From: Candidatus Limnocylindrales bacterium
GTDB taxonomy: Bacteria; Chloroflexota; Limnocylindria; Limnocylindrales; CSP1-4
DNA: 64,000 nucleotides
Reading direction: 5' to 3'
Assembly: GCA_036559965.1 (NCBI GenBank)
Contig: DATBSD010000136.1
Span: forward strand, 1,640 to 65,639
The translations under genes and the position numbers were made by a program. Under the pieces are notes generated by a model. That model ran no database searches and was not told where the DNA came from. It saw only the letters and a list, made by a program, of their open reading frames with translations. This document shows, piece after piece, positions 36,543-47,385 of this stretch. How positions within the stretch are numbered: position 1 is the stretch's first letter; each line of letters starts with the position of its first letter.

Positions 36543-38291
36543 ATGACAGACGAGATCCTGGGCCAGTTCCTGGGCGACGACGCCTTCCCGGTGACCTGGG
36601 ATTCGGACGTCGAGCGGGACTTCTTCTGGGTCTACGACGACCTCCACATCCCGCACCCGGTCAGCCCCATGTTCTTCGACATCGGCGGCTGGTGGCTGAG
36701 CTGCGATCACATGTTCCGTCGCTTCGGGACGCCGTTCGCCGTCGACTGGCTGGCAAAGGCCGTCAACGGCTATGTCTACACGACCGCCATCCCGGCCGAC
36801 CCCGACCTGCACATAGAGGGCACCGAGTACAGCGCCCGCTACCAGGCTCGTGTGCCGCGCGACGCCGCCTTCGCCTCGACCATGGGCGCCTACCTCGACA
36901 CCGTCCTCCCAACGTATGGCAAGCACTTCGCCGACTGGTGGCGCGACCGCCTGGTGCCAGAGATGCAGCGCAACTTCGCGTACCTCGAGGCGCGCCTCGA
37001 CGAGGTCGAGCGCATGGACCTGGCGGAGACGGCTGTCCTGCTCGAGGACGCCATCGACATCCACGATCGGCACTGGAAGATCCACTGGATGCTCAACTTC
37101 GCGCAGCTCTCGGCCACGCTCGACCTGCGGGCGGTCATGGAACGGGCGCGCGGCAGCGTCGACGAGGGGCTCCTGGGACGGCTCCAGAACTCGGCTTCGG
37201 ACCGCAACTGGGACTCCATCGAGGCGCTCTGGCGGATGAAGAACGAGGTCCGCGACGACGACCAGCTGCGGGCTGCCTTCGCGCCCGAGGACACGGCCGA
37301 GATCCTGGCCGCCCTCGTGGCGGGCGAGCGCGGCCGCCGGTTCCTGGCCGAGCGCGTCGAGCCCTACCAGCGCGAGTTCGGCTGGCACGCCGTCTGGAGC
37401 CACGAGTTCATCTTCCCGACCGTGCGTGAGCAGGTGGAGCCGGTGCTCGAGCTCGTGCGCGGCTACCTCGCCACCGATTACGACTACCCGACGGCCATCG
37501 AGGCCATGCGGAAGGACATCGAGGCTGCCTCGCAGGAGATCCTCGGCGGCCTCTCGGGCGCCGACCTCGACGCCATGCGAGCGGCCAACGAGGTCAACCT
37601 GCGCATGGCGCCGCTGACGCCCGACCACCACTTCTACATCGACCAGGGCGCCAACGCCCACCTCCGCCTGGTGCTCCTGACGGTCGGCCAGAAGCTCGTC
37701 GAGCTCGACCGTCTCGACGAGCCGGACGACGTCCTGTTCCTGCGCTACAACGAGCTGCGCGCCCTCATCGGCAGCGCCGACGCCATCGATGCGCGCGGGC
37801 TCGTCGCCGTTCGGCGGACCGAGCGCGACGCCCAGCAGCGCCTCCAGCCGCCCGATTGGATCGGCACCGCGACCGCCGCGCAGCTGGCCTTCCCGTATCT
37901 CGTCAACTGGGGCTACCCGGAGCGCTTCCACCAGATCCAGTCGGAGGACCTGCGGCTGATCACCGGCATCGGCGCCTCGCCCGGGGTCCTGGAAGGCACC
38001 GCCCGGGTGGTCCAGACCATCGACGAGTTCGACCAGGTCCGCGACGGCGACATCCTCGTCTGCCAGATGACGAACCCGGCCTGGGTCGTGCTGTTCACGA
38101 AGATCGCCGCCCTCGTGACCGACACCGGTGGGCTGACTTCGCACCCGGCCGTGCTCTCGCGCGAGTTCGGCATCCCGGCCGTCATCGGCACGTCCGTTGC
38201 GACGCAGCGCATCGCGACCGGCGACCGGCTGCGGGTCGACGGGAGAGCCGGCAAGGTCGAGATCCTGCGCGAGGCGGCGTCGGGCGCGTGA
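36543..38291 (+). CDS. PEP-utilizing-enzyme family protein: novel ~450-aa N-terminal domain plus C-terminal phospho-His swivel (mobile) domain; first gene of six-gene operon
   Basis: C-terminus GDILVCQMTNPAWVVLFTKIAALVTDTGGLTSHPAVLSREFGIPAVIG matches the PEP-utilizers mobile domain of PpsA/PPDK/EI (catalytic His ~534, preceding Thr-Ser as in regulated dikinases); the N-terminal region has no ATP-grasp or TIM-barrel motifs I recognise. Confidence 0.8.
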   Translation: MTDEILGQFLGDDAFPVTWDSDVERDFFWVYDDLHIPHPVSPMFFDIGGWWLSCDHMFRRFGTPFAVDWLAKAVNGYVYTTAIPADPDLHIEGTEYSARYQARVPRDAAFASTMGAYLDTVLPTYGKHFADWWRDRLVPEMQRNFAYLEARLDEVERMDLAETAVLLEDAIDIHDRHWKIHWMLNFAQLSATLDLRAVMERARGSVDEGLLGRLQNSASDRNWDSIEALWRMKNEVRDDDQLRAAFAPEDTAEILAALVAGERGRRFLAERVEPYQREFGWHAVWSHEFIFPTVREQVEPVLELVRGYLATDYDYPTAIEAMRKDIEAASQEILGGLSGADLDAMRAANEVNLRMAPLTPDHHFYIDQGANAHLRLVLLTVGQKLVELDRLDEPDDVLFLRYNELRALIGSADAIDARGLVAVRRTERDAQQRLQPPDWIGTATAAQLAFPYLVNWGYPERFHQIQSEDLRLITGIGASPGVLEGTARVVQTIDEFDQVRDGDILVCQMTNPAWVVLFTKIAALVTDTGGLTSHPAVLSREFGIPAVIGTSVATQRIATGDRLRVDGRAGKVEILREAASGA

Positions 38292-39184
38292 CGAGCGTGG
38301 TGCTGAGCGAGGAGTTCGTGGCAGGGCCCGCCCGGCTGCGGGTCGACGTCCTCGGCGGCCCGCCCATCGAGCACGTCCTCGATGACAAGAGCTTCCTCGA
38401 CTACCGCCTGGCGGACGTGCACATCGACCCGGCGCCCACGCTCGCCGAGCCCGATATCGTCTGGGATCGCGAGGCCGGACGGAGAGCCATCGACTACGAC
38501 GACCGACGGATGACGTTCTCGGGCGACTGGCCGGCGGGTCCCATCCAGAAGGTCGTCGTGGCCATGCTCGCGCTGCGGCTCGAGAACCTCGGGCTGCATC
38601 CCTTCCATGCGTCGGCCGTGCGCTACCGCGACAGGACGATCCTCTTCCTGGGCGGCGAGTCGAACCACGGCAAGTCGATGGGCCAGATCGAGGCCTGCCG
38701 GCGCGGGGCGATGCTGGTCTCGACGGAGACGACGATCATCGACGAGTCGGGCATCGTCAGGGCGGGGTCGAAGTCGCCGTTCCTGAAGAAGCGCACCGAG
38801 GGCACCGAGCGGGCTGACAAGGCGGCGCCCGAACGCGGCGTCGAGAAGTTCTTCGGCGACATGCCGACCTGGGCGCTGTACACGGAGCCGAGCGTCGTCG
38901 ACCTCGTCGTGGTGCCCGCGATCGACGGCAACTTCGACCCCTCGAGCGCCGAGATGATCCCCTTCGAGCGCCAGTTCCAGACGCTCCACTCGCTCCAGAA
39001 CTACTTCCTGCTCAACGAGCTGCTGGCGCCCGGCATCCCCATGCCCATCGTCGACACGACCGAGCGCCGGGCGGCGCGGGCGGCCTTCGTCGCGAGCTTC
39101 GCTGAGCGGCCGTACGTCTTCGTGCGGGCCGCCAACCCGCAGGTGCTGCTCGACGAGGTCGATGCCGTGCTCCGGCCGGCCTGA
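38288..39184 (+). CDS. HprK-like P-loop kinase-domain protein
   Basis: GTGA overlap with the upstream stop; HASAVRYRDRTILFLGGESNHGKSMGQIEACRRGAMLVSTETTII matches the HPr-kinase C-terminal domain pattern (H..V....G.L..G.SG.GKS..AL.L...G..L..DD); 298 aa. Confidence 0.6.
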   Translation: MTSVVLSEEFVAGPARLRVDVLGGPPIEHVLDDKSFLDYRLADVHIDPAPTLAEPDIVWDREAGRRAIDYDDRRMTFSGDWPAGPIQKVVVAMLALRLENLGLHPFHASAVRYRDRTILFLGGESNHGKSMGQIEACRRGAMLVSTETTIIDESGIVRAGSKSPFLKKRTEGTERADKAAPERGVEKFFGDMPTWALYTEPSVVDLVVVPAIDGNFDPSSAEMIPFERQFQTLHSLQNYFLLNELLAPGIPMPIVDTTERRAARAAFVASFAERPYVFVRAANPQVLLDEVDAVLRPA

Positions 39185-40053
39185 TGCGCGCGTTCGCCTA
39201 CGAGCGACCGACCGACCTCGACGCCGCCATCGCGACGCTGGCCCGGCATGGCGACGACGCGCGGCCACTTGCCGGCGGGACCGACCTCATCATCCGTCTG
39301 CGCGATGGGACCATCCGGCCGCGACTGGTCGTCGACCTCAAGGGCATCGCCGAGCTCGACGACGCCATCGCCGAGCACGACGGTGGTCTGCGCATCGGAG
39401 CACGGACCATCATGACCGACATCGCCGCAGATCCGCGCATCAGGCGCGACTACCAGGCGCTGGCCGAGGGGGCGGCGGTCGTTGGCGCGGTCCAGATCCG
39501 CAACCGGGCGACGCTGGCCGGCAACATCTGCAACGCCTCGCCGGCCGCCGACACGGCGCCGGCGCTGCTCGTCTTCGGTGCCGTCGTCGTCGCCGTCGGG
39601 CCGGCGGGCGAGCGGCGCATCCCCATCGACGCCTTCTTCGTGCGTTCCGGCGTCACGACGCTGGGCCCAGAGGAGCTGGTCACGGCCATCGAGCTGCCGC
39701 GGTCCGCTGCCCCAAGAGGCTCGACCCACGTCCGGCGGACCCGCCGCCGTGGCCACGACCTCGCCTCGGTCACCTTGAGCTGCACCGTGTCGGCCGATGG
39801 CACCGTGACCATCGGCTACGGCAGCCTCGGACCGCGGCCCATCCTCGTGACCGACGACTCGGGTGTGCTGGTCGATCCGGCGGCCCCCGAACGGGCGAAG
39901 CTGGAATGCCTCGACGCGCTCTTCGTCGACGCCAGCCCGTCGCCCCGGTCGCTCCGAGCGAGCCCGGACTACCGGCTGGCGATGCTCCGTGTCCTTGCCC
40001 TGCGCGCGATCGCGAAGGCCGCAGAGCGCCTGAACCACGCCGACGGCGCATGA
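39184..40053 (+). CDS. xanthine-dehydrogenase-family FAD-binding subunit (CoxM-like)
   Basis: ATGA overlap; MRAFAYERP...LAGGTDLIIRLRDG, NRATLAGNICNASPAADTAP FAD-binding blocks. Confidence 0.85.
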   Translation: MRAFAYERPTDLDAAIATLARHGDDARPLAGGTDLIIRLRDGTIRPRLVVDLKGIAELDDAIAEHDGGLRIGARTIMTDIAADPRIRRDYQALAEGAAVVGAVQIRNRATLAGNICNASPAADTAPALLVFGAVVVAVGPAGERRIPIDAFFVRSGVTTLGPEELVTAIELPRSAAPRGSTHVRRTRRRGHDLASVTLSCTVSADGTVTIGYGSLGPRPILVTDDSGVLVDPAAPERAKLECLDALFVDASPSPRSLRASPDYRLAMLRVLALRAIAKAAERLNHADGA

Positions 40054-40541
40054 CGCCGCGACCCATCGCGCTGACCGTCAACGGGCAGGCTCGCGCGCTG
40101 ACCGTCGCCGCCCATCACACGCTGCTGGAGGTCCTGCGCGACGACCTAGCGCTGACCGGCTCGAAGGCCTGCTGCCTGGTCGGCGAGTGTGGGGCGTGCA
40201 CCGTGCTCGTCGATGGTCGGAGCGTCGACGCCTGCCTCGTCCTCGCGGTCGAGATCGACGGGGCGGTAGTCACGACCGTCGAGGGCCTCGCGACCGACGG
40301 ACGCCTCGATCCGCTCCAGGCCGCGTTCCTCGAGACCGGTGCGGCGCAGTGCGGGTTCTGCATCCCCGGCCAGCTCGTCTCCGCGCGGGCGCTCCTGGCC
40401 GCCAACGCGCATCCGACTCGCCACGAGGTCGAGGACGGCCTGGCCGGCAACCTCTGCCGCTGCGCGGGCTACGGCCAGATCGTCGAGGCCGTGCTGGTGG
40501 CCGCCGGCGAACGTGGCGCGGCCCCTGGGGCCGGCGGATGA
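40050..40541 (+). CDS. xanthine-dehydrogenase-family [2Fe-2S] subunit (CoxS-like)
   Basis: ATGA overlap; LTVNGQ, CCLVGECGACTVLVDG and QCGFCIPGQ...NLCRCAGY cysteine clusters. Confidence 0.9.
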   Translation: MTPRPIALTVNGQARALTVAAHHTLLEVLRDDLALTGSKACCLVGECGACTVLVDGRSVDACLVLAVEIDGAVVTTVEGLATDGRLDPLQAAFLETGAAQCGFCIPGQLVSARALLAANAHPTRHEVEDGLAGNLCRCAGYGQIVEAVLVAAGERGAAPGAGG

Positions 40542-42847
40542 CCGCCGCCGACGGCATCGGCGCCTCACCGGCCAGGGTCGGCGGCCTCGATCGGGTGACC
40601 GGTCGCCAGGCCTACGTCGCCGACATCCACCTCGAGGGCGTCCTCGAGGTCAAGCTCGTCGCCCTCGACTGCGCTCGAGCACGCATCGTGGGCATCGACG
40701 CCAGCGCCGCGCTGACTGTCCCGGGTGTTCGCTTCGTCATGACCGCCGACGATCTGCCGCAGCCGATGCCGCGCTTCGGGCCGCAGTGGCAGGACCGACC
40801 GGTGCTCGCCGTCGGCGAGACGCGCTACCACGGCGAGCCGGTCGCCGCGGTCGCCGCCGCGACGCTCGATGCCGCTGAGGAAGCCGCCGCGCTCGTGCGC
40901 GTCGACTATGAGGAGCTGCCGGCCGTCACGACCATCGCCGCTGCGCTCGAATCGGGCGCCTCCCTCGTCCAGGACCCCGCCCTCCGAGCCGGCGACCCGC
41001 TGGCGGCGACGAACATCCTGCGCGAGCACGACTACGGCTGGGGCGACGTGGACGCCGTGGGTGCGGACGCCGAGGTGGTGGTCGAGGGCACGTACGCGTT
41101 CCCGATCGTGACCCAGTTCGCCATCGAGCCGCACGGCTTCATGGCCGCGCCGGACGGGGATGGCATCGCCATCTGGAGCTCGATCCAGCATCCCAATTGG
41201 CTCCAGCGCGTGGTGGCCGGCGTGCTCGGGCTGCCGCTCGCCAAGGTGCGCGTCTTCGCGCCCGACCCGGGGGGAGGCTTCGGCGGCAAGCAGCACGCCA
41301 AGTACGAGCCGCTCGTCGCCTTCATGGCTCTCAAAGCAGGCCGGCCTGTGCGGCTCGTGCTGACGCTCGAGGAGACGTTCCAGGCGGTCCGTCGGGGCGC
41401 ATCGGAGATCCGCGTCCGTTCCGGCTTCCGCACCGACGGTGCCCTCGTCTTCCGCGACATCGAAGCCGACTACCTCATCGGCGCCTACGCCGACATCGCC
41501 GACCGGACGGTGGCCAAGGGCAGCTACACCGCCAACGGCCCCTACCTCACGCCGGCCGTCCGAATCCACGCCCGGAGCATCCTCTCGAACACGACGCCTT
41601 CGACGGCATTCCGGGGCTTCGGCAATCCCCAGCAGATCTGGGCCGTCGAGTCGAACATGAACGAGGCGGCTGGCGTGCTTGGCATCGACCCGCTCGCGCT
41701 GCGGCTGCGCAACCTGGCCGGCCACGGTGATCCATTCATCCCCGGCGACACGCCGGCCGACGGCGCGTGGGCGACCACCGTCGAGCGGGCCGCCGAGCTC
41801 ATCGGCTGGAACGGCCCGCCAGGGCCGGGGGCCAGCGAGGGCCCCGTCGTGGCTGAGAAGCTGGCGGTCGGGCGCGGGCTGGCGGTCGGGCTGAAGTCCG
41901 GCCCCACCACCGGCCTCTCCTATGCCACCGTCCGCATGCTGGCCGACAGCAGCGTCATCATCCATGCCGCCACGTCCGACATGGGCCAGGGTGCGCGAAC
42001 GATCTTCGCCCAGATCGCGAGCCAGGAGTTGGGCGTGCCGCTCGACTGGATCTCGGTCGTCATGGGCGACACGGCGACCGTGCCCTACGACCAGCAGACG
42101 TCGGCCAGCCGCTCGTCCGTGCTCATGGGCAATGCCGTCCTGGACGCCTGCCGGGCAGTGCAGGCGAAGGTGCGCGACATGGCAGCGCGCCTGGAGTCGG
42201 TCGACGCAGCGGCCGTCGAGGTGGCCGACGGCGAGGTCCGCATCGGCGAGCGCACGTGGCCGCTGCGTAACGTCCTCATCCGCGGCCTCGGCCGGCTGGG
42301 TGGCGAGGTCATCGGCCTTGGCGAGATGCGCAAGGAGGCCGACCCCGACCACCCGCTCGGCGGGACCGCCGCGTTCTTCGAGTTCAACTGCACGGCTGTC
42401 GAGGTCGCCGTGGACCGCGAGACGGGCGACGTGTCCGTGCTGCGCCACGTCAGCGTCTCCGACGTCGGCCGGGCGATGAATCCCAGCCAGGTCCGTGGCC
42501 AGGACGAGGGCGCCGCGATCATGGGCCTCGGGCACACGCTCATGGAGCAGATCATCTACGACGACGCCGGCCGGATCCGCAACCTGGGCGCCATCGACTA
42601 CCACATCCCCACCAGCCTCGACCTGCCGACGGAGATGGAGACCGCGATCATCGAGCACGAGGACGGGCCGGGTCCCTACGGCTCGAAGGGTATGAGCGAG
42701 GGCGCGCTGCTGTGCGTCGCCCCGGCCGTGGCCGCCGCGGTCCACGATGCGGTCGGCGTCACGATCCGGGACCTGCCACTCTCGCCGGAGCGGGTCTGGC
42801 GGGCGCTCCAGGAGGCCTCGCCGAGCGAGCCGCCCGGCGCGTCGTGA
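40538..42847 (+). CDS. xanthine-dehydrogenase-family molybdopterin-binding large subunit (CoxL-like Mo-hydroxylase)
   Basis: ATGA overlap; PDPGGGFGGKQ MoCo motif, STAFRGFGNPQ active-site region, 769 aa. Confidence 0.9.
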   Translation: MTAADGIGASPARVGGLDRVTGRQAYVADIHLEGVLEVKLVALDCARARIVGIDASAALTVPGVRFVMTADDLPQPMPRFGPQWQDRPVLAVGETRYHGEPVAAVAAATLDAAEEAAALVRVDYEELPAVTTIAAALESGASLVQDPALRAGDPLAATNILREHDYGWGDVDAVGADAEVVVEGTYAFPIVTQFAIEPHGFMAAPDGDGIAIWSSIQHPNWLQRVVAGVLGLPLAKVRVFAPDPGGGFGGKQHAKYEPLVAFMALKAGRPVRLVLTLEETFQAVRRGASEIRVRSGFRTDGALVFRDIEADYLIGAYADIADRTVAKGSYTANGPYLTPAVRIHARSILSNTTPSTAFRGFGNPQQIWAVESNMNEAAGVLGIDPLALRLRNLAGHGDPFIPGDTPADGAWATTVERAAELIGWNGPPGPGASEGPVVAEKLAVGRGLAVGLKSGPTTGLSYATVRMLADSSVIIHAATSDMGQGARTIFAQIASQELGVPLDWISVVMGDTATVPYDQQTSASRSSVLMGNAVLDACRAVQAKVRDMAARLESVDAAAVEVADGEVRIGERTWPLRNVLIRGLGRLGGEVIGLGEMRKEADPDHPLGGTAAFFEFNCTAVEVAVDRETGDVSVLRHVSVSDVGRAMNPSQVRGQDEGAAIMGLGHTLMEQIIYDDAGRIRNLGAIDYHIPTSLDLPTEMETAIIEHEDGPGPYGSKGMSEGALLCVAPAVAAAVHDAVGVTIRDLPLSPERVWRALQEASPSEPPGAS

Positions 42848-44991
42848 CCCACGCCTACGCCCTGGATGCCCTGCCGGCGATGGCGTCTGGCGATCTGCGT
42901 GCGCTCGTGGGTGGCAAAGCCGCCGGCCTCGCCGTCATGTCGACCGAGCTCGGGTTGCCAGTGCCGCCCGGCTTCGTCATCACGACCGACGTCTGCCGCC
43001 TGTTCCTGGCCGATGGCTGGCCGGCTGGCCTCGACGACGAGATCCGGGCTCGGATGGCGGCTGTCGAGGCGACCGTCGGGCGCCGGTTCGGCGATCCCGG
43101 GGACCCGCTTCTCGTCAGCGTCCGGTCCGGCGCGCCGGTCTCGATGCCCGGCATGATGGACACCATCCTCAATCTCGGCCTCAACGATGGGACGACGACG
43201 GGTCTCGCCCGCGCGAGCGGCGACACCACGTTCGCCGAACGCTGTCGCGAGCGCCTCACGTCGAGCTTCCGCGCGATCGTCGGCATCGAAGCCCCGGACG
43301 ACCCCTGGCAGCAGCTGCGGCTGGCGGTCGAGGCGGTCTTCGGCTCGTGGCAGAGCGATCGGGCGGTGGCGTATCGGGCGAAGGAGAACATCCCGGACGG
43401 CCTGGGCACCGCGGTCACGGTGCAGGCCATGGTCTTCGGGAATCGCGGCACGACCTCCGCGACCGGCGTCCTCTTCACGCGCGACCCGGCAACCGGCGAG
43501 CCGACCCTCTACGGCGACATCCTCTTCGACGCCCAGGGCGAGGACGTCGTCGCCGGCACGCACGCGACCGAGCCCATCGCGGTCCTCGACGAGCGGCTTC
43601 CCGCGGTCGCCGCCGAACTTCGGGACCATGCCGCGCGGTTGGAGCACCACCTCGAGGACATGTGCGACATCGAGTTCACCATCGAGGATGGGCGGCTGTG
43701 GATGCTCCAGTGCCGCGTCGGCAAGCGCAGCCCGCAGGCCGCCTTGCGCATCGCTCTCGACATGGCCGAGGACTCGACGTTCCCGCTCACGCGAGCCGAG
43801 GCCGTCGAGCGCGTCGCCGCGCTGCTCGCGAACCCGCCGACGACGACGAGGGAGCGCGGCGGCGCCCTGAAGCCGCTCACGACGGGCATGCCGGCCTCGC
43901 CAGGCATCGCCAGCGGCCCCATCGCGACCAGTCCCGAAGCCGCGCTCCTGGCGGCCGACGAGGGGAGGGCAGCCATCCTCGTCCGCGCGGACACGTCCCC
44001 GGACGACGTGCCCGGCATGGCCCGCGCCGCCGGCATCCTGACATCGCGCGGCGGTCTCGCCAGCCACGCCGCGGTCGTTGCTCGAGGCTGGGGGATCCCG
44101 GCCGTCGTCGGCGCGGCCGAGGTGGCGGTGCACCACGACACGGTCGTCGTGGGCGATCGGACGTTCCAGTCGGGCGAGATCATCACCATCGACGGCAGCA
44201 CCGGTGACGTCTTCGAAGGCGCCATCCCGGTCAGTCGGGACGTCGTGCCGGAGGCCAGCCCGCTGCTTGACTGGGCGACGGAGCTCGGGATCCCGATCCC
44301 CCAGGGCGCACCCGACATCGCGCGGATAGCGCCCGATGTCCAAGCCTTCGCCGACGCCGGCGCTTCCGACCGGGCTGCCAGCCCGGACGCCTGTCTTCGA
44401 GCCGTCGCCGTCAAGGGGTTCGCTTCGGTGCAGGCGATCGCCGACGCCGTCCTCTCGACGCCAGACGTCGTCCAGCCGGCAGTCGACCGACTCTTGAACG
44501 ATGGGCTGCTGGCGATCGTCGCCGACGCCTTCCGACTGACGGACGCCGGCACGGCCCGCGCGGAGGCCTTGCGCGCCGAGGACCAGGCGGCCTGGGGCCT
44601 CGAACGTGCCAACGCTGCGCTCGATGCCTTCCTCGGCCTCGACCACCGGATGAAGGACACGGTCACGGCCTGGCAGGTCCGCGACGCCGCCGCGCAGAAG
44701 CTCAACGACCACGCCGACCCGGACTACGACCGACGGGTGCTGGCCTCGCTGGCGGACCTCCATGCCGACGCGGTCGCCTGGCTGGCGCCGCACGAGGTCG
44801 GCTGTGCGCGGTTGGGCGACTACGGCGTGCGGCTCGGGCGCGCGCTCGAGCGGGCGCTGGCGGGCGATCAGCGCTTCGTCGCCTCACCTCGCGTCGACAG
44901 CTACCACGGCATCTGGTTCGAGCTCCACGAGGACCTCATCGGGCTGGCCGGTCGCACCCGCGCGGACGAGGTCGCCGCCGGTCGCGCCTGA
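42844..44991 (+). CDS. pyruvate-phosphate-dikinase-like protein: PPDK N-terminal ATP-grasp nucleotide-binding domain plus phospho-His central domain, lacking the PEP/pyruvate TIM barrel, with a ~230-aa C-terminal extension
   Basis: GTGA overlap with coxL stop; near-identical PPDK blocks DPLLVSVRSGAPVSMPGMMDTILNLGLND, TAVTVQAMVFGN, GEDVVAGTHATEPI, DIEFTIEDGRLWMLQCRVGKRS, and His domain ILVRADTSPDDVPGMARAAGILTSRGGLASHAAVVARGWGIPAVVG; no RTEH/NDLTQ TIM-barrel motifs follow. Confidence 0.85.
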   Translation: MTHAYALDALPAMASGDLRALVGGKAAGLAVMSTELGLPVPPGFVITTDVCRLFLADGWPAGLDDEIRARMAAVEATVGRRFGDPGDPLLVSVRSGAPVSMPGMMDTILNLGLNDGTTTGLARASGDTTFAERCRERLTSSFRAIVGIEAPDDPWQQLRLAVEAVFGSWQSDRAVAYRAKENIPDGLGTAVTVQAMVFGNRGTTSATGVLFTRDPATGEPTLYGDILFDAQGEDVVAGTHATEPIAVLDERLPAVAAELRDHAARLEHHLEDMCDIEFTIEDGRLWMLQCRVGKRSPQAALRIALDMAEDSTFPLTRAEAVERVAALLANPPTTTRERGGALKPLTTGMPASPGIASGPIATSPEAALLAADEGRAAILVRADTSPDDVPGMARAAGILTSRGGLASHAAVVARGWGIPAVVGAAEVAVHHDTVVVGDRTFQSGEIITIDGSTGDVFEGAIPVSRDVVPEASPLLDWATELGIPIPQGAPDIARIAPDVQAFADAGASDRAASPDACLRAVAVKGFASVQAIADAVLSTPDVVQPAVDRLLNDGLLAIVADAFRLTDAGTARAEALRAEDQAAWGLERANAALDAFLGLDHRMKDTVTAWQVRDAAAQKLNDHADPDYDRRVLASLADLHADAVAWLAPHEVGCARLGDYGVRLGRALERALAGDQRFVASPRVDSYHGIWFELHEDLIGLAGRTRADEVAAGRA

Positions 44992-46137: not shown

Positions 46138-47385
46138 ATGTACACGGCCACCAAGGACCTCATGCTCCCGGCGACCGTCACCGGCTCGTGGCCGCGGCCG
46201 CGCTGGTACGACGGCGGCCTGTGGGGCCGGCCGCTCGACACGGCGCTTCTCGACGTCCGCTTTCGCGAGCAGTTCCTCGATGCACACGCCACCGTCATCG
46301 CCGACCAGCAGCGCGCCGGGCTCGACATCCTGACCAACGGCGACTACCACCTCGACGAGGACTTCGCCGGACGCTCGTGGCACCACTACCCGCTCCAGCG
46401 CTGGAAGGGCCTCGAGCACGAGGAGCTGCAGTACGAGCGCTCGCGCGACCGACTGCTCGAGTTCCCGCCAGGGTCACTGATGAACGAGATCGAGACGACG
46501 TGGCGCTGGCCGCGCGTCGTCGGCAAGGTCGAGCACGACCCCCGCAACCCGCTCGAGTACGCCAAGCTCTGGCGCATCGCCCAGGCGCGCTCTGGCTCCG
46601 GCAAGCCGGTCAAGTTCGGGACCTGCTCGTCGCAGGTGCTCTCGATCTTCCTCGACAGTCACACGCCCGAGTACGACCTCGAGGACAAGAAGCAGCTCAT
46701 CTGGGACATGGCCGGCGCGATGAACGTCGAGCTCCGCCAGCTGGCGGCCGCCGGTGCCAAGGTCATCCAGATCGAGGAGCCGACCATCCACTTCGTGGCG
46801 GCCTTCTATCCCGACCAGAAGGAGCTGCTCGACTTCCTCGTCGACGCCTTCAACCACGAGGTCGAGGGCCTCGACGACGTCGAGCTCTGGATCCACACCT
46901 GCTGGGGCAACCCGAACATGCAGAAGGTCTACACCGGCGAGTCGTATGAGCCCTCCATCGACATCTATCTCAACCGGCTCAAGGGCGACGTCTGGACCGT
47001 CGAGGCGACCGAGAACGAGCTGGCCGAGATCGAGCTCTTCAAGCCCTATGCCAGCCGGCTTCAGAAGAAGGTCGCCGTCGGTGTCGTCAACCACCGCACC
47101 CTGCAGGCCGACATGGCGCCGACCGTGGCCAGGCGCGTCAGGCGCGCGCTGGAGGTCATCCCGGCCGACAAGCTCATCCTCTCGACCGACTGTGGCTTCG
47201 GCCGGCAGGGCTTCAATCGGACCGTCGCCTTCTACAAGACGACGGCCATCGCCCAGGCGCGTAACGTGGTCCTCAAAGAGCTCGGGCTCGAGGAGCGCTA
47301 CGTCCCGGCGGCCGACCCATCGCTCCAGACCGACGTGCTCCCGGACCGCGAGCCCCTGACCCACCTGCCGTCACCGTGGACGTAG
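46138..47385 (+). CDS. cobalamin-independent methionine synthase (MetE) C-terminal-domain-like / UROD-superfamily methyltransferase
   Basis: ATG after GAGGAGG; ~415 aa; zinc-ligand-like HTCWGN and STDCGFG motifs as in MetE catalytic domain; single domain only (full MetE has two). Confidence 0.7.
   Translation: MYTATKDLMLPATVTGSWPRPRWYDGGLWGRPLDTALLDVRFREQFLDAHATVIADQQRAGLDILTNGDYHLDEDFAGRSWHHYPLQRWKGLEHEELQYERSRDRLLEFPPGSLMNEIETTWRWPRVVGKVEHDPRNPLEYAKLWRIAQARSGSGKPVKFGTCSSQVLSIFLDSHTPEYDLEDKKQLIWDMAGAMNVELRQLAAAGAKVIQIEEPTIHFVAAFYPDQKELLDFLVDAFNHEVEGLDDVELWIHTCWGNPNMQKVYTGESYEPSIDIYLNRLKGDVWTVEATENELAEIELFKPYASRLQKKVAVGVVNHRTLQADMAPTVARRVRRALEVIPADKLILSTDCGFGRQGFNRTVAFYKTTAIAQARNVVLKELGLEERYVPAADPSLQTDVLPDREPLTHLPSPWT

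Follow-up and report, generated by a model that had tools for sequence, protein, structure and literature searches.

A forward-strand gene in the 64,000-nucleotide stretch of contig DATBSD010000136.1 analyzed here (the window), from a Candidatus Limnocylindrales bacterium of the Chloroflexota, encodes a protein that begins like pyruvate, phosphate dikinase (PPDK) and ends in a different module. The features of the gene and of its operon are listed in Table 1. The open frame spans 42712-44991. The likely start is the GTG at 42844, which overlaps the TGA stop codon of the upstream molybdenum (Mo) hydroxylase large subunit gene as GTGA. A preliminary description of this DNA held that the segment 44281-44991, which encodes residues 480-715 and the stop codon, had taken the place of the substrate barrel of PPDK, that it may contain a winged helix, and that the protein is not a pyruvate dikinase. 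Our analysis shows that the gene is a natural fusion of a truncated PPDK of the VadK type with a discrete, conserved 200-amino-acid module.

The kinase half was examined with Pfam, NCBIfam and the PDB. Only PPDK_N and PEP-utilizers were found by Pfam in the whole protein (E values in Table 1), and PEP-utilizers_C had no match in the 715 residues. TIGR01828, the equivalog model of true PPDK, scored 525 bits against a cut-off of 843 and aligned only over profile positions 189-525 of 865. PPDK chains in the PDB aligned with E values of ~1e-117 to ~1e-113, and these alignments end near query residue 481. Because the defining phosphoenolpyruvate (PEP)/pyruvate barrel was looked for and is absent, the protein is not a PPDK. 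Both points agree with the preliminary description, and the second fits what has been found for VadK (PMC13400623). In contrast to TIGR01828, the NF004531/PRK05878 model, which describes short actinobacterial "PPDK" proteins, was passed with 496.8 bits against a cut-off of 456 (profile positions 21-479 of 534). By this curated NCBIfam model the kinase half is a member of the VadK-type short PPDK family.

The predicted catalytic residue of the swivelling domain is His408 in GGLASHAAVVARG (nucleotides 44065-44067), and Arg94 lies within the SVRSGA motif of the ATP-grasp domain. The amphipathic helix that follows the His domain is kept in fused and split VadK proteins, and a comparable motif is present in the stand-alone VadK proteins of Mycobacterium, Streptomyces and Actinomadura. 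It corresponds to the linker that leads into the third domain of PPDK.

Table 1. Features of the kinase-module gene, followed by the other genes of its operon. Positions are those of the window; aa, amino acids.
Feature	Position	Strand	Length or residues	Remarks
Whole gene, VadK-type truncated PPDK with fused partner module	42844-44991	+	715 aa	Open reading frame, GTG start; last of the six operon genes
ATP-grasp nucleotide-binding domain	42844-43863	+	~1-340, boundaries approximate	Pfam PPDK_N, 5.9e-49
Swivelling phospho-histidine domain	43876-44226	+	~345-461	Pfam PEP-utilizers, 5.9e-23; PPDK central domain 2fm4 aligns to 345-461
Conserved amphipathic helix after the His domain, VVPEASPLLDWATELGIP	44239-44292	+		Consensus PEARTLLxWAxELGI in the family alignment
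Variable linker	44293-44382	+	~484-513	pLDDT 60-69 over tail residues 1-30; gappy, unconserved alignment columns
Winged helix-turn-helix	44383-44538	+	514-565	Conserved LRxxxxKG motif, xRLTxxG wing
Four-helix bundle	44542-44988	+	567-715	Invariant polar/aromatic residues, C-terminal AGRA
Rph/PigC/PRK08296-like protein	36543-38291	+		Substrate-type domain and C-terminal swivel His domain, no ATP-grasp; Pfam PEP-utilizers at residues 500-570
Protein without family match	38288-39184	+	298 aa	
FAD subunit, xanthine-dehydrogenase family	39184-40053	+		
2Fe-2S subunit, xanthine-dehydrogenase family	40050-40541	+		
Mo subunit, xanthine-dehydrogenase family	40538-42847	+		

The tail was modelled by AlphaFold2 with family alignments. 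The whole tail reached a predicted local distance difference test (pLDDT) score of 92 and a predicted template modelling (pTM) score of 0.87, and the bundle alone a pLDDT of 96. The models consist of a winged helix-turn-helix followed by an up-down four-helix bundle, with no beta/alpha barrel. A profile of the family searched against the PDB gave weak, consistent matches of the winged helix to the DNA-binding domains of DtxR, MntR, MarR and CggR (E values of 2.5e-4 to 1e-2) and no match for the bundle. The winged helix of the preliminary description is therefore present at residues 514-565. Its likeness to MarR/PadR proteins holds for the fold over ~50 residues, but most of the 236 residues are something else, and the best-conserved part is the four-helix bundle.

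The tail matches 560 clusters when these are formed at 90% identity. At 50% identity there are 1324 (E<=1e-3), of which 757 reach E<=1e-10. The module sits at the C-terminus of proteins of ~590-780 aa or, very often, stands alone as a protein of 197-217 aa. No model in Pfam, NCBIfam or PADLOC covers it; the last 236 residues alone gave only a sub-threshold match to HemN_C, and the PADLOC defence models gave no matches. The family is widespread and has neither a name nor a model in the libraries that were searched. Fused members are annotated in databases as "pyruvate, phosphate dikinase", and stand-alone members as "hypothetical" or "MarR family regulator".

Conservation was traced in the family alignments, in which the motifs WQ, NDHxDxxYD and DSYHxxWFELHEDL stand out. 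The LRxxxxKG...GxRLTxxG segment is moderately conserved, the C-terminal half of the tail is highly conserved, and the last 40 residues are the best-conserved stretch of the module. The invariant residues of the bundle are W610 and Q611; N621, D622, H623, D625, Y628 and D629; R656, Y660 and R663; D685, S686, Y687 and H688; W691, F692, E693, H695 and E696; R706; and the C-terminal AGRA. Across Chloroflexota, Actinomycetota, Myxococcota and one proteobacterial member, at 32-41% overall identity, ~25 polar or aromatic residues of the bundle are invariant. Judged from the secondary structure, they fall at the C-terminal end of helix 2, in the loop and N-terminus of helix 3, on one face of helix 4, and in the N-terminal half of the last helix and its loop.

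One genome per GTDB species was scanned for the gene, which yielded 80 loci; a contig fetched earlier brought the number to 81. Kinase and module form one uninterrupted frame in 66/81 loci. In 7/81 the module shares a frame with the last part of the His domain and a frameshift lies further upstream; in 4/81 the gene is otherwise interrupted, and in 2/81 (L075 and L076) the module is a separate gene ~2 kb from the kinase. The last 2/81 end at a contig edge or have no kinase nearby. The nearest relatives, at 50-76% identity, are metagenome-assembled genomes (MAGs) of Chloroflexota that are of Limnocylindrales type or labelled "Chloroflexia". Other loci come from Acidimicrobiia, Dormibacterota, Myxococcota and Nocardia isolates.

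In several cultured isolates the module is encoded by a gene next to the kinase gene, and these are clear natural splits. The partner gene lies downstream in M. parmense (kinase 549 aa, partner 204 aa, 45-bp gap), Mycobacterium sp. Aquia_216 (542 and 201 aa, 8-bp overlap), Mycolicibacterium monacense (543 and 201 aa) and, for one paralogue, M. pinniadriaticum (534 and 201 aa). It lies directly upstream in a Streptomyces sp. (505 and 203 aa) and an Actinomadura sp. (501 and 203 aa). These split partners of 201-204 aa align end to end with the tail (~200 residues) at 32-41% identity, with E values of 1e-24 to 6e-42, and have the motifs WQ, NxHxDxxYD and DSYHTVWFELHE in common with it. When loci were sampled from the kinase (L084-L088), a separate adjoining partner gene was present in 4/5, and in L088 the module forms the C-terminus of an Rph-like protein; L089, from M. 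pinniadriaticum, has an adjoining 201-aa partner. In Gordonia terrae, Nocardia sp. NPDC052278 and Mycobacterium sp. GA-2829, kinase and partner matches fell on contigs of identical size.

Mycobacteria contain at least two clades of VadK-type kinases, whose mutual identity is 55-57%. M. pinniadriaticum has two kinase paralogues (L075 and L089), each with a module gene of its own. The 201-aa module of L089 is encoded directly downstream, and that of L075 2 kb off, past a GntR/FCD regulator and an acyl-CoA dehydrogenase fragment. In the stand-alone mycobacterial kinases L083, L084 and L085 the linker helix is followed by ~60 further C-terminal residues (for example ALAAGHTDVVSPHPLVTMLIALRL), which are absent from the fused proteins.

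The occurrence of the fusion in many lineages, together with adjacency in either order elsewhere, is strong evidence that kinase and module are functional partners. By this Rosetta-stone pattern the functional unit is the kinase plus the module, which marks the module as a working part of the kinase system. The domain swap of the preliminary description was correct in that the barrel is absent and another module is present, but the event is better described as a fusion, the module being a separate adjoining gene in Mycobacterium, Streptomyces and Actinomadura.

Several long-read MAGs (L001, L019, L038, L047, L060, L068 and others) have frameshifts inside the gene that mimic splits. L001 was considered as a natural split (496 and 210 aa, 4-bp overlap) and rejected, as its frames show the end of the His domain, the linker and the tail in one frame with the frameshift upstream. 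Because this apparent split is a frameshift, splits in long-read MAGs were not counted as natural. Interruptions of this kind affect 13/81 loci, most of them long-read MAGs. Gene-architecture counts from such assemblies need a frame check. An apparent fusion to an ABC transporter (P0019), in which the His domain is present only as a fragment, was left out as a likely chimeric call.

Frameshifts in related loci could also be taken to mean that the fusion itself is an assembly or frameshift artefact; alternatively, the tail could be a degenerate PEP/pyruvate triosephosphate isomerase (TIM) barrel. The probability of either is negligible. The fused frame is uninterrupted in 66 independent loci, no PEP-utilizers_C signal was detected, and the AlphaFold2 models are a winged helix and an all-alpha bundle with pLDDT scores of 92-96. 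Whether orthologues keep the tail was a question raised by the preliminary description, and the 1324 clusters and 66 intact fusions show that they do. The helical models and the invariant motifs mean that the tail is neither a divergent barrel nor an unconserved extension.

The closest characterized protein is Rv1127c of M. tuberculosis, which was shown not to be a PPDK; this truncated PPDK was renamed VadK (Pascoe et al., EMBO Rep 2026; PMC13400623). VadK autophosphorylates on His422 with ATP and Mg, is required for growth on propionate or cholesterol and for virulence, and pulls down PrpC and PrpD (PMC13400623). Its operonic partner Rv1126c, a protein of 201 aa, co-purifies with VadK and raises its solubility, and 2 M NaCl is needed to separate the two (PMC13400623). 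No function was proposed for Rv1126c, which the supplement lists as "Conserved protein", and VadK was treated as a two-domain protein (PMC13400623).

Like VadK, the kinase half of the present protein is a truncated PPDK in which only the ATP-grasp and swivelling His domains are present. The catalytic His and the ATP-binding Arg are conserved, H408 and R94 here standing against His422 and Arg106 in VadK, with a His-to-Arg spacing of 314 residues versus 316. In mycobacteria of the VadK clade a tail homologue of ~200 aa is encoded by a separate gene directly downstream of the kinase, whereas the partner is covalently fused here, as in most non-mycobacterial lineages. The genetic context is a Mo-hydroxylase operon here versus prpR/prpDC for VadK, and prp genes were not among the neighbours noted in the window. 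Because identity between the kinase half and the mycobacterial proteins compared is only ~42% and the context is different, orthology of the kinase with Rv1127c is uncertain, as is a role in methylcitrate-cycle control.

The relationship of the tail to Rv1126c was approached through the published quantitative PCR primers for rv1127c. The peptides AVFASWNSP and ANEPFGEW, derived from these primers, occur in the kinase clade that holds L084, L085 and L089. In these three loci the gene after the kinase encodes a 201-aa tail homologue, as Rv1126c is in length and position. The inner 24-mer of the forward primer had no exact match in the genome contigs scanned, and M. tuberculosis is not among the 120 protein matches listed. 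Because length, downstream position and primer-peptide clade agree, the tail is very likely the fused form of the Rv1126c family.

Since the winged helix is related to DNA-binding domains at the profile level, we considered whether the module is a MarR/DtxR-like transcription factor domain that the attached kinase switches by phosphorylating a histidine. Such a system would be an ATP-driven analogue of the PEP-dependent phosphotransferase system (PTS), which phosphorylates the helical PRD domains of winged helix regulators. The invariant histidines in the helical bundle after the winged helix would suit this role, some stand-alone members are named "MarR family transcriptional regulator" by NCBI, and loss of VadK changes the transcriptome (PMC13400623). 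Yet the same transcriptomics argue against transcriptional control of the methylcitrate genes (PMC13400623), and the surfaces that would meet DNA are not basic. The recognition helix and wing have a mean net charge of -1.4 and are positive in only 6/53 members, the wing, a turn of two residues, has no basic side chain, and the module is strongly acidic throughout. For these reasons DNA binding by the winged helix is unlikely, as is the transcription factor reading as a whole, and the MarR/PadR-like DNA-binding role is disfavoured. Conservation points the same way, the recognition helix being the least conserved part of the module whereas the bundle is near-invariant across phyla.

Membership of the MarR family was examined separately. 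The Pfam thresholds of MarR and MarR_2 were not reached, the best MarR E value being 0.17 in 1/69 members. The module has the winged-helix fold in common with MarR and DtxR/MntR, along with weak profile similarity of residues 514-565. It differs from MarR in its acidic recognition helix, its minimal wing, the lack of the MarR dimerisation helices, the four-helix bundle that follows, and the fusion to or partnership with a kinase. Because the Pfam threshold was missed and basic DNA-contact surfaces are absent, the module is not a MarR-family member; the fold alone is common to both.

Structural matches to the bundle were generic four-helix bundles only, the best being protein-interaction bundles such as FAT, talin and vinculin. 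The bundle has the fold of HPt domains, but Pfam gave no Hpt match at E<=1, and no sequence signature of PRD or HPr was found either. A HEPN domain was considered on account of an Rx4-6H-like string (RVDSYH/RPIIDSYH) and rejected, as neither a fold match nor a conserved Rx4-6H motif was found. The many invariant His, Asp, Glu, Arg, Trp and Tyr residues of the bundle argue for a defined chemical or binding site over a mere docking tail.

A defined site could belong to a sensor. In that case the module would bind a small molecule or metal and gate autophosphorylation of the kinase allosterically, as a regulatory input rather than an acceptor. The invariant residues are concentrated in bundle loops and helix ends, and the layout of a winged helix followed by a helical ligand domain recalls the DtxR/MntR metalloregulators. 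The catabolic neighbourhoods, which vary by lineage (acyl-CoA enzymes in Actinomycetota, Mo-hydroxylase in Chloroflexota), would fit a generic sensor-kinase unit. However, a ligand site would be expected to vary with this context, yet it is near-invariant; the bundle is not similar to any known ligand-binding bundle, and the module has no known ligand. We rate a sensor as improbable, marginally more so than a transcription factor.

The module could instead be a passive structural partner that serves solubility, dimerisation or scaffolding and has no phosphoryl or signalling role. The sole published observation, that Rv1126c aids VadK solubility and binds it tightly, would be explained in this way, as would the autophosphorylation of VadK alone (PMC13400623) and the resemblance to the protein-interaction bundles. 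About 25 invariant polar residues outside the core, kept across phyla at 32-41% identity, are more than a scaffold usually needs, and the extreme C-terminal AGRA is conserved as well. A purely structural role is therefore very improbable, clearly more so than a sensor.

The kinase gene closes a run of six forward-strand genes (36543-44991) linked by start/stop overlaps of 1-4 bp. The six genes are one translationally coupled operon. No promoter-like or terminator-like sites were found downstream of the kinase-module gene. The first gene encodes an ATP-grasp-less protein that resembles PRK08296, PigC, RedH and Rph, with every score below cut-off. An Rph-like orthologue (>55% identity) is present in 45/81 loci, and the Mo subunit (CoxL) lies upstream on the same strand in 45/81. 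In Mycobacterium (L084 and L089) Rph-like genes likewise belong to the operon or lie in its neighbourhood, and others lie near the Nocardia fusions. In a Solirubrobacteraceae MAG (L088:2527-5001) an 824-aa Rph-like protein carries the module at residues 627-823 (E 3e-34), and its gene immediately precedes that of a stand-alone kinase of 479 aa. Rph-like protein, kinase and module are joined as triple fusions in two metagenomic proteins, P0224 and P0249 (1049 and 1256 aa). In all fusions the module sits after a PEP-utilizers swivel domain.

In actinomycetes the other neighbours are acyl-CoA dehydrogenases, enoyl-CoA hydratases, carboxyl transferase, a 2-oxoacid:ferredoxin oxidoreductase or P450s. 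The constant set consists of the kinase, the module and often the Rph-like protein, and the accompanying catabolic enzymes vary. The Rph-like swivel protein is a recurrent third partner of the kinase.

The second gene of the operon encodes a 298-aa protein that accompanies the operon in related loci, at 62-78% identity, and had no match in Pfam, NCBIfam or PADLOC. It was compared with the product of a 296-aa gene near a mycobacterial kinase, to which it is not similar (E 0.8). Beyond the operon, a MetE-like protein (46138-47385, forward strand) consists only of the catalytic domain of cobalamin-independent synthase. It is 86-97% identical across related Chloroflexota loci, versus 60-80% for the neighbouring operon genes. 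In Streptomyces sp. JNUCC 63 (L086:4367-7205) the partner (203 aa) and kinase (505 aa) genes are followed by one for a histidine-phosphatase-superfamily protein (218 aa, PF00300). SixA phospho-histidine phosphatases are members of this superfamily. A histidine phosphatase as a regular kinase partner, following SixA-type logic, was rejected, as the gene is present in one locus only among those compared.

In enzymes of the PPDK family (PPDK, PEP synthase, Enzyme I and Rph) the swivel domain moves back and forth from the ATP-grasp domain to an acceptor-side domain specific to each family. The present protein has the ATP-grasp domain, the phospho-histidine swivel domain and the post-His linker helix of canonical PPDK (Clostridium symbiosum 1kbl, maize 1vbg), but the C-terminal PEP/pyruvate TIM barrel of those enzymes is absent. 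Rifampin phosphotransferase, PigC/RedH and PEP-synthase-like enzymes follow the same principle, a PPDK-type phosphoryl shuttle with a different acceptor-side module. The third module here, a winged helix plus four-helix bundle, is unrelated to the rifampin-binding or PigC substrate domains, and an ATP-grasp-less member of the Rph/PigC group is encoded in the same operon. Transfer from PTS Enzyme I to HPr, the PRD regulators and the HPt domains serve as comparisons and not as a claim of membership; the donor would be charged by ATP here, versus PEP in the PTS.

By analogy with the autophosphorylation of M. tuberculosis VadK, ATP would phosphorylate His408 of the swivel domain. The fused module would take the place of the third, or acceptor, domain of PPDK and would be an acceptor-side or adaptor unit visited by the phospho-histidine domain. 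Its bundle has a putative polar cluster of H623, D625, D629, D685, H688 and W610/Q611, with R656/Y660/R663 and E693/H695/E696 on adjacent helices. This cluster may receive the phosphoryl group, bind a ligand that receives it, or keep the swivel domain aligned with the Rph-like partner. The winged helix would most likely be a protein-contact or dimerisation element rather than a DNA reader. Since the module is the only occupant of the acceptor position, always follows the swivel domain and has ~25 invariant bundle residues, an acceptor-side or adaptor role is favoured. The whole explanation, a VadK-type kinase fused to an acceptor-side or adaptor module of the Rv1126c family, is given a probability of roughly 0.55.

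Several points weigh against this explanation. The bundle resembles generic four-helix bundles only and has no HPt, PRD or enzyme signature, and the clustering of invariant residues at one end of it was deduced from secondary structure and helix periodicity only. The winged helix is related at the profile level to real DNA-binding domains. The membership of Rv1126c in the family is deduced from gene position, length and clade. Finally, binding to PrpC and PrpD is what has been proposed for VadK, and Rv1126c is not among the stringent co-immunoprecipitation hits (PMC13400623).

A bolder proposal would make the module a new kind of phospho-histidine acceptor or adaptor. With the VadK-type kinase and the ATP-grasp-less Rph/PigC-like protein it would form an ATP-driven machine of three parts for histidine phosphotransfer, encoded within catabolic operons of Chloroflexota, Actinomycetota and Myxococcota. 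In that case Rv1126c would be, besides PrpC and PrpD, the immediate functional partner of M. tuberculosis VadK. The proposal is put forward tentatively and is rather unlikely, though slightly less so than the transcription factor.

The description of VadK as a virulence-essential, non-canonical histidine kinase of M. tuberculosis dates only from 2025-26, and Rv1126c was mentioned there as a solubility aid alone (PMC13400623). We found no paper that describes the fused architecture or the link to Rph-like proteins. The results correct the database name "pyruvate, phosphate dikinase" for the fusions and "MarR family regulator" or "hypothetical" for the small proteins. They also provide testable targets, namely the His, Asp and Arg residues that are invariant in the bundle, the complex of Rv1126c with VadK, and a possible transfer onto the Rph-like protein. 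The kinase is fused to its partner family in most lineages, and elsewhere the partner adjoins the kinase gene in either order. The pattern suggests that the missing functional partners of a kinase relevant to virulence are modules of the Rv1126c type and Rph-like proteins.

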